A stretch of 64,000 nt of DNA, taken from sequence record PQ349265.1; one strand, given 5' to 3'. Numbering within the stretch: the first letter of the stretch is position 1; each line of letters starts with the position of its first letter. Of this stretch, positions 27,873 to 28,686 are shown one piece after another. A program made the position numbers and the translations under genes. Below the pieces are notes generated by a model. The model saw only the letters and a list, made by a program, of their open reading frames with translations. It did no database searches and was not told the DNA's origin. The DNA comes from Escherichia phage CJY920.

Positions 27873-28133
27873 TTATTCGACCTTCTTAAATTTGCAATTG
27901 TCAAAATGGTATCTTTTAGCGTGAGACTTATCCATGATTTTAGAACAGTGCGGGCATTTTAATTTTTCTCTGCTATGAGATACACCCGTGATAACTTTGC
28001 ATTTATCGCCGTGGTATTTTCCATAATTTCCTACATCACATATAATTCCGCAATGCGGGCAATTTCTCTTTTCGACTTTTGCAAGACCTTTAGATAGTTT
28101 ATTTAAATACTTTTCGTATTTTTTGGGGGTCAC
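27873..28133 (-). CDS. zinc-ribbon ORF (CPHCG...CPHCS), GTG start or frameshifted tail of the upstream HNH gene
   Basis: 86-aa ORF whose only start is GTG (28133); overlaps the HNH ORF by 35 nt in another frame; no ATG until near its C-terminus. Confidence 0.3.
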
Positions 28134-28686
28134 TTTTAAGCTCAGACCAGAAATCTTTCATCTGTTTAGAACATCTTTCTTTATATTCTAACATTTCGTT
28201 TTCTGATAACGATTCCAAATATTTCACTGAAGCTTTTCGAATATTTGCATTAACTTCTTTTCTCTTTTCATCTGTCCATAAAGATTTAGTTTTTTTAATG
28301 CCTTTTCCGGCTTTTTTAATTCGTTCCTGTTTTAAATTTGGTGATAGATTCGCCCAAAACTTTTTAATGGTTTCTGATCTAATTTTAGATGTTTCCTCTT
28401 TAATCCATCCGTAATCTTTACTTACAATTCTCTGCTCTTTTGTACCCTTGGAGAATTTTATTAAGGCATAAGCCATTTCAGAATTTCGGTGTATTTTAAA
28501 AAGAAGCTCATGTGCAAAATAGTGTTCTCTTGCTGTCAGTAAAACCTTGTTTTCTCTAGAATCATCTCCTCCCATGGATTTTGGGACAATATGGTGTGAT
28601 TCTGTGTAATAATCTAATTTTTTCTTATTAAGACCTCTTTTAAGAGATCTTTCTATAAGAGAGTTGTAAATTTTAGTATAATTCAT
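28099..28686 (-). CDS. HNH homing endonuclease (Mob-like) inserted between genes 13 and 14
   Basis: 195-aa ORF; [39 protein letters not shown] core; paralog of the ORF at 48042-48701. Confidence 0.8.

Follow-up and report, generated by a model that had tools for sequence, protein, structure and literature searches.

A free-standing Mob-type homing endonuclease gene between neck genes 13 and 14, split into two reading frames by one extra adenine in the sequence record of a T4-type phage

A life cycle of gain, decay and loss has been proposed for homing endonuclease genes, and a defunct one, I-TevIII, is described in the nrdB intron of T4 (PMC2790892; PMC2988022). The Mob family of T4 (MobA to MobE), of which MobE is the experimentally characterised member (PMC2790892, PMC2988022), offers a described likeness to the gene studied here. 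Both show N-terminal HNH homology, a free-standing position between conserved genes and sporadic occurrence among close relatives; the T4 genes occupy other insertion sites, whereas the present gene lies at the 13/14 junction. The gene itself is already known, being annotated intact in T6 and many relatives. A published description of the 13/14 insert was not found in the literature, which yielded general reviews of the T4 Mob and Seg genes only. The copy analysed here is a disrupted member of the Mob-type free-standing homing endonucleases.

The DNA examined, 64,000 nucleotides of Escherichia phage CJY920 (PQ349265.1; hereafter the window), comes from a T4-type (Tequatrovirus) genome in which the minus strand carries the late structural genes. 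Its best INPHARED match, taken over a 25-kb query, was vB_EcoM_CE1 (97.7% identity across 95% of the query). A first-pass annotation made from the letters alone had placed a Mob-like HNH ORF of 195 aa across the junction of neck genes 13 and 14, followed by an 86-codon ORF overlapping it by 35 nt, with two CPHC-type motifs and a GTG start. The coordinates of both ORFs and the two motifs were confirmed, and tblastn of gp13 and gp14 bore out the position between the neck genes. The Pfam HNH_4 hit lay above its cutoff (25.6 bits versus 22, residues 25–52). The label Mob-like likewise held up, in matches to T4 MobB (50% identity over residues 1–111, E = 2e-27) and RB59 MobE (32% identity over residues 1–230). 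The ATG of the HNH ORF overlaps the TGA stop of gene 13 as ATGA. The 86-codon ORF runs in the +1 frame relative to it; its first start codon is the GTG and its sole ATG is codon 67, and its codons 6–86 correspond to residues 190–270 of the intact protein. Both of its motifs have the form C-P-H-C...H-x3-C, that of Cys2-His-Cys zinc fingers. The TAA that closes this ORF sits 1 nt ahead of the gene 14 ATG (TAA-T-ATG), which has AAGGT 8 nt upstream. ORF prediction had begun gene 14 at a TTG at 27904, a start rejected on homology, which puts the true start at the ATG at 27871. Scanning both strands at 26000–31500 for the T4 late promoter TATAAATA gave no match, which suggests that the endonuclease gene shares a transcript with genes 13 and 14.

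Table 1 Features of the 13/14 locus, and other nuclease ORFs and frame-breaking indels in the window.
Feature	Position	Strand	Evidence or description
Gene 13 (neck protein gp13)	28683..29612	-	tblastn: 309/309 aa, 98.7% identity to 215Ecol030PP gp13
Homing endonuclease 5' part, HNH ORF	28099..28686	-	195 codons; 1-189 authentic, then 6 out-of-frame codons (IRKVFK) and TAA
HNH catalytic core, residues 25-59 (ESHHIVP...N...H..AH)	28510..28614	-	Pfam HNH_4 and HNH hits
Frameshift site	28119..28124	-	six A's (six T's on + strand), after C5 at 28125-28129; relatives have five A's
86-codon ORF, 3' part of endonuclease gene, read from upstream GTG	27873..28133	-	
Zinc finger 1, C209-P-H-C212 ... H225 ... 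C229	27999..28061	-	direct sequence reading; aligns with fFiEco06 and PMBT1 fingers
Zinc finger 2, C244-P-H-C247 ... H260-F-D-N-C264	27894..27956	-	
Gene 14 (neck protein gp14)	27101..27871	-	tblastn: 256/256 aa, 98.8% identity
Second Mob-like HNH ORF, 219 aa	48042-48701	+	gene 2 (ends 48039) to gene 3 (starts 48808)
HNH-like ORF, 163 aa	20246-20737	-	genes 18/19; motif reading only
GIY-YIG ORF, 233 aa	13509-14210	+	genes 23/24; motif reading only
GIY-YIG-like ORF, 288 aa	43529-44395	-	around genes 5, 5.1, 5.4; motif reading only
GIY-YIG-like ORF, 196 aa	42423-43013	-	around genes 5, 5.1, 5.4; motif reading only
Indel in 14.2-kDa-protein gene	56486	+	2-nt deletion
Indel splitting 162-aa membrane-protein gene	56954	+	T6 to T7
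Indel near start of 179-aa gene	58678	+	CCC to CC
Indel in grcA-like glycyl-radical cofactor gene	59602	+	+1 C (C to CC)
Indel in 73-aa gene	60029	+	1-nt deletion

The two ORFs are a single 270-codon endonuclease gene, 813 nt long when intact. Megablast of the 814-nt segment against INPHARED matched 46 phage records at 95.8–99.6% identity, and the insert-carrying records include T6, Pu-Krd-SF1/2/5/6/7, fPS-2, CrRp10, YUEEL01 and 215Ecol030PP. The match spanned 813 nt in 41 of the 46 and 812 nt in the other five, never 814 nt. The frame was continuous in 41 of these records, as it was in five metagenome contigs, and none of the 46 showed the break of the window. The 813-nt records that were fetched (Pu-Krd-SF5, T6, 215Ecol030PP, sutha, RPN226, pSe_SNUABM_01 and YUEEL01) annotate a single 270-codon CDS, and intact records label the product 'homing endonuclease', 'HNH endonuclease' or 'putative mobile endonuclease'. 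A five-way DNA alignment placed A6 in the window against A5 in T6, Pu-Krd-SF5, F1 and SHFML-26, and the sole length difference at the site is GACCCCC-AAAAAA-TAC versus GACCCCC-AAAAA-TAC. It is this sixth A that divides the ORF into 195 and 86 codons: the frame shifts after codon 189 and meets a stop six codons on. Removal of one A gave a 270-aa product that is one residue off the annotated Pu-Krd-SF5 homing endonuclease.

The repaired 270-aa protein has an exact match among 15 billion proteins, a collection in which the exact 195-aa and 86-aa products are absent. Contigs encoding it include two from independent metagenome assemblies, the 57-kb Logan assembly SRR19497814 and the ENA contig ERZ9423967, whose gene has A5 and is otherwise identical to that of the window at 813/813 positions, indicating that the extra A is the only change on the window haplotype. 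The A6 pattern had no match in INPHARED. Exact-pattern scans of IMG/VR gave no contig with A6 and one with A5, numbers too small to inform. The first of three readings in the first-pass annotation, a frameshift that parts the endonuclease from its zinc-binding C-terminal domain, is thus right at the sequence level; in the alignment it had proposed, intact homologues continue past the end of the 195-codon ORF into sequence that either equals the 86-codon ORF or is homologous to it.

The intact protein consists of an N-terminal HNH (beta-beta-alpha-metal) nuclease, a helical linker of ~110 residues and two C-terminal Cys2-His-Cys fingers. PHROG 655 'homing endonuclease' matched the repaired protein in one stretch, residues 1–267 (E = 3.5e-52). 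The 86-codon ORF alone matched the C-terminal part of the same profile (positions 152–234, E = 1e-5) and recurs unchanged as the C-terminal end of intact proteins from related phages, indicating that it is not a chance ORF. Single-chain relatives at 33–36% identity, fFiEco06 and PMBT1, finish with the same CPHC...WHFDNCKFK finger, and a search of 5.8 billion protein clusters found many single-chain homologues (28–57% identity, query coverage 98–100%). Conservation was scored on an alignment of 48 full-length homologues. Invariant in all 48 were H31, H32, N46, H55 and H59 of the HNH motif and C244, C247, H260 and C264 of finger 2, inside the 86-codon ORF; P245, F261, D262 and N263 were conserved in at least 90%. 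Purifying selection on the intact gene is strong: when sutha and RPN226, the most diverged alleles, serve for comparison, pN/pS of the 270-codon frame is 0.04–0.05, and residues 192–270 carry no non-synonymous and six synonymous changes. Judged by this conservation, the zinc-finger region at the C-terminus belongs integrally to the endonuclease.

An AlphaFold model built from the 48-homologue alignment (mean pLDDT 91.6) showed a beta-beta-alpha nuclease domain (1–80), long helices (90–203) and beta-beta-alpha fingers at 206–224 (finger 1) and 241–259 (finger 2); the HNH core takes a beta-beta-alpha fold with pLDDT > 93. Precomputed NUMOD3 (PF07460) hits exist for many homologues. The window protein gave no such hit at E <= 1, and the model has only the long helices of residues 90–203 where NUMOD3 repeats would sit. 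Querying the PDB by sequence with the repaired protein returned nothing below E = 0.08, with generic HNH motifs only (group II intron maturase, Cas8-HNH). Foldseek of the model against the PDB gave no match at E <= 0.001; the matches were to HNH domains and tandem zinc-finger arrays and were weak, so that a structural homologue cannot be claimed.

These data bear on a further proposal of the first-pass annotation, an accessory protein initiated at the GTG. Expressed alone, the 86-codon ORF would yield a two-finger DNA-binding accessory, repressor or target-protecting factor, with or without the truncated nuclease acting in trans. The frame is open, the start codon is permitted, both fingers are complete and the stop retains its TAA-T-ATG coupling to gene 14. 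However, the ORF exists only through the frameshift and is separate in no relative, and in every finger-bearing homologue of the 48-sequence alignment the fingers are joined to the HNH domain. Neither the 15 billion proteins, from which the exact product is missing, nor the 5.8 billion clusters yielded a stand-alone homologue, and the Shine-Dalgarno sequence is weak (only GAG, ~10 nt upstream). The annotated 106-aa ORFs of F1 and SHFML-26, two phages described below, come from a different frameshift. We consider this proposal scarcely credible.

The remaining proposal of the first-pass annotation was that frameshifting joins the two parts. This could happen by a +1 ribosomal slip at CAA-AAA-A or by a slip of RNA polymerase on the A run, and would give a reduced dose of full-length enzyme. 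The P-site tRNA-Lys can re-pair from AAA to AAA one base downstream, the zero-frame A-site codon is AUA, which is rare in E. coli, and the downstream frame is otherwise undamaged. T4-type phages carry tRNA genes of their own, one of which reads AUA, and the related 215Ecol030PP has a cluster of ten tRNAs, which speaks against the proposal; six A's, moreover, are few for RNA polymerase to slip on efficiently. The site may be compared with prfB (RF2), where a +1 shift is likewise needed to join the frames and a codon competent for re-pairing is present. Unlike prfB, it is not conserved, has no upstream Shine-Dalgarno stimulator and lacks an in-frame stop where the slip would occur. Since no relative shows the frame break, it cannot be called conserved or 'programmed'. 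No GGAGG-like stimulator lies upstream, and the 121-nt RNA around the site folds about as well as its shuffled counterparts (z = -0.58). With unbroken relatives and neither stimulatory signal nor RNA structure, joining of the frames is very improbable.

The preferred reading is that the extra A is a genuine, very recent inactivating slippage mutation of a Mob-type free-standing homing endonuclease, a view that we hold with modest confidence. It is the likeliest reading, and a base-calling error is nearly as likely. Runs of A are classical frameshift hotspots of T4 replication (Streisinger slippage), and replication slippage would have added one A to the A5 run. The product would keep the nuclease and linker and lose both fingers, leaving the 86-codon ORF as a stranded C-terminus; such a frameshift may be the first step by which a selfish gene dispensable to the phage decays. 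The window copy has probably lost its endonuclease activity.

The competing account, a substantial possibility although we rate it short of an even chance, is that the phage itself carries A5 and an unbroken 270-codon gene, the extra A being a homopolymer base-calling error. An artefact was not among the three readings of the first-pass annotation, which did propose resequencing of 28095-28140. A one-base difference in a C5A5 tract is the commonest type of sequencing error, and A6 is confined to the window record, as against the 46 INPHARED records, the IMG/VR hits and the five metagenome contigs. The perfect identity to intact alleles elsewhere in the gene, with no second defect, suits an error and fits a very recent mutation equally. 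Five other unusual indels, called on the plus strand of the early region against the closest relatives G50, HY01 and 215Ecol030PP, include the same-base-run changes at 56954 and 58678; the remaining three (56486, 59602 and 60029), however, lie outside same-base runs of three or more. The idea of a window generally riddled with homopolymer errors was rejected: in comparison with 215Ecol030PP, all 46 late or structural CDSs are intact (41.7 kb, 242 homopolymer runs of at least five bases), and random error should have struck these too. All six frame-breaking indels in the window, the endonuclease one included, fall in dispensable genes, and six placed at random would all miss the intact CDSs with P ~0.002. 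This pattern is what selection would leave; depositors or curators who fixed frameshifts only in familiar genes could mimic it, and natural polymorphism could account for some of the five further indels. These five, in small dispensable early genes, represent either pseudogenisation in the isolate or local sequence errors.

Records of separate origin carry another frameshift in this gene, which also argues against an artefact and indicates that such alleles occur. In vB_EcoM_F1, FN and SHFML-26 the gene is broken by an A7-to-A6 deletion ~170 nt upstream of the window site. The deletion was found on two haplotypes that differ at seven positions, indicating that it is independent of the window lesion; it has either arisen more than once at a hotspot or been carried from one background to the other by recombination. 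A Logan assembly also has the 153-aa product with which F1 and FN are annotated, and the 106-aa ORFs annotated in F1 and SHFML-26 stem from this deletion, not from the window lesion. RefSeq lists the broken pieces as separate proteins (two hypothetical proteins). On balance, the extra A is somewhat more likely than not to be present in the phage as well as in the sequence file.

We also considered an A6 allele that is real and not dead, active through an attenuated dose of full-length enzyme from low-level +1 slippage, as a two-piece endonuclease (truncated nuclease plus GTG fragment), or through the fragment as a target-binding repressor. This is a long shot; if true, homopolymer runs (A5 here, A7 in F1/SHFML-26) would be reversible on/off switches for a selfish nuclease.

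The surroundings of the gene carry marks of a mobile insert. Genes 13 and 14 abut directly, as in T4, in 446 of roughly 500 Tequatrovirus records matching the T4 13/14 junction (...CCATTTGGAATTTTGGTAGGTTAATATG...), and the insert is present in 46 records, about 9% of sequenced Tequatrovirus phages, T6 among them. Alignment of the junctions showed that the insertion is precise relative to T4. Gene 13 ends in CCATTTGGAATTTT[G/T]GTAGGTTAA-T-ATG in six insert-free phages and in CC[G/A]GTGGGAGTGTTAGTTGGATGA in nine insert-bearing genomes; the last 21 nt of gene 13 in the window (28683-28703, minus strand) are the recoded version, CCGGTGGGAGTGTTAGTTGGATGA. This recoded end occurs in 9/9 insert-bearing versus 0/6 insert-free genomes, with 7–8 fixed differences within the 21 nt, and two encoded residues are replaced (F to V, I to V). 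It also yields a GGGAG that precedes the endonuclease ATG by ~10 nt and could serve in ribosome binding. Farther from the junction, polymorphisms are common to insert-bearing and insert-free classes, and the window flanks equal those of the insert-free RB32. A free-standing homing endonuclease gene beside a recoded, presumably cleavage-resistant neighbour sequence is a standard signature, and the 13/14 insert appears to conform to it. By analogy with T4 MobE and the Seg enzymes (PMC2790892, PMC2988022), the intact enzyme would cut the insert-free 13/14 junction of a co-infecting phage, and recombinational repair would then copy the endonuclease gene into the cut genome. The endonuclease may have its target, or the site that confers immunity, in the recoded last 21 nt of gene 13, which offers a concrete candidate recognition sequence for an uncharacterised Mob-type enzyme.

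Other apparent mobile elements were seen in the window. Five more free-standing nuclease ORFs lie between conserved late genes (Table 1). The second Mob-like HNH ORF is 46% identical to residues 1–113 of the 13/14 enzyme, is without zinc fingers and is missing at that position in 215Ecol030PP, which has short intergenic regions at the four other apparent nuclease ORFs. Gene 17 (terminase large subunit; 22902-25754, minus strand) is present as two same-frame ORFs split by a 1017-nt insert (23967-24983). Its N-terminal piece (24861-25754) finishes ...AMIYIDEC and then has ~40 extra residues, and about 107 additional residues, running up to ...VESHN|CAF, open its C-terminal piece (22902-24287). 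Within the insert, a 206-codon ORF (24275-24895) matched Tn7_TnsA-like_N (8e-10) and Phage_endo_I (1e-5). The arrangement looks like a split intein plus a free-standing endonuclease, as described for 'fractured genes' (PMC2677866). The insert occurs at >=99% identity in 12 INPHARED Tequatrovirus records (HY03, SG1, PD112, CE1, BYEP01 and others), whose annotation lists two terminase CDSs together with either an endonuclease or a hypothetical protein. Additionally, a hoc-like outer capsid protein (9422-10549) shows about 70–79% identity to 215Ecol030PP, with internally repeated matches, and fibritin (29648-31102) shows 78.6%; their neighbours are at 97–100%. This divergence is ordinary surface-protein mosaicism.

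The biological weight of the disrupted gene is small, as T-even homing endonuclease genes are known to be sporadic, dispensable and decay-prone. Its value for annotation is more direct: the 195- and 86-codon ORFs are best entered as a single disrupted gene or pseudogene, pending resequencing and any correction that follows from it, and the entry to avoid is an HNH protein and a hypothetical zinc-ribbon protein as two genes. Additionally, the two independent homopolymer frameshifts provide a natural series of alleles (intact, cut after residue 189, cut earlier) that bears on the contribution of the zinc fingers.

Compared with known systems, the nearest is the T6 allele itself (KMB99_gp239, YP_010067306.1), which together with about 40 Tequatrovirus records shares the 13/14 position and the ATGA and TAATATG junctions. 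The intact alleles are 95.8–99.6% identical to the window gene in DNA and have A5 where the window has A6. The alleles of F1, FN and SHFML-26 resemble the window copy in being the same gene with a one-base change in an A run, and differ in that theirs is the A7-to-A6 deletion at another site. T4 MobB shares the N-terminal half only and is without the C-terminal Cys2-His-Cys fingers. I-TevIII offers a parallel in fate: it is an inactive T-even HNH homing endonuclease gene with an intact version in relatives, as the window gene would be. The T4 copy of I-TevIII was truncated by deletion. I-TevIII is intron-encoded, whereas the window gene is free-standing and carries a single inserted base with no further decay.
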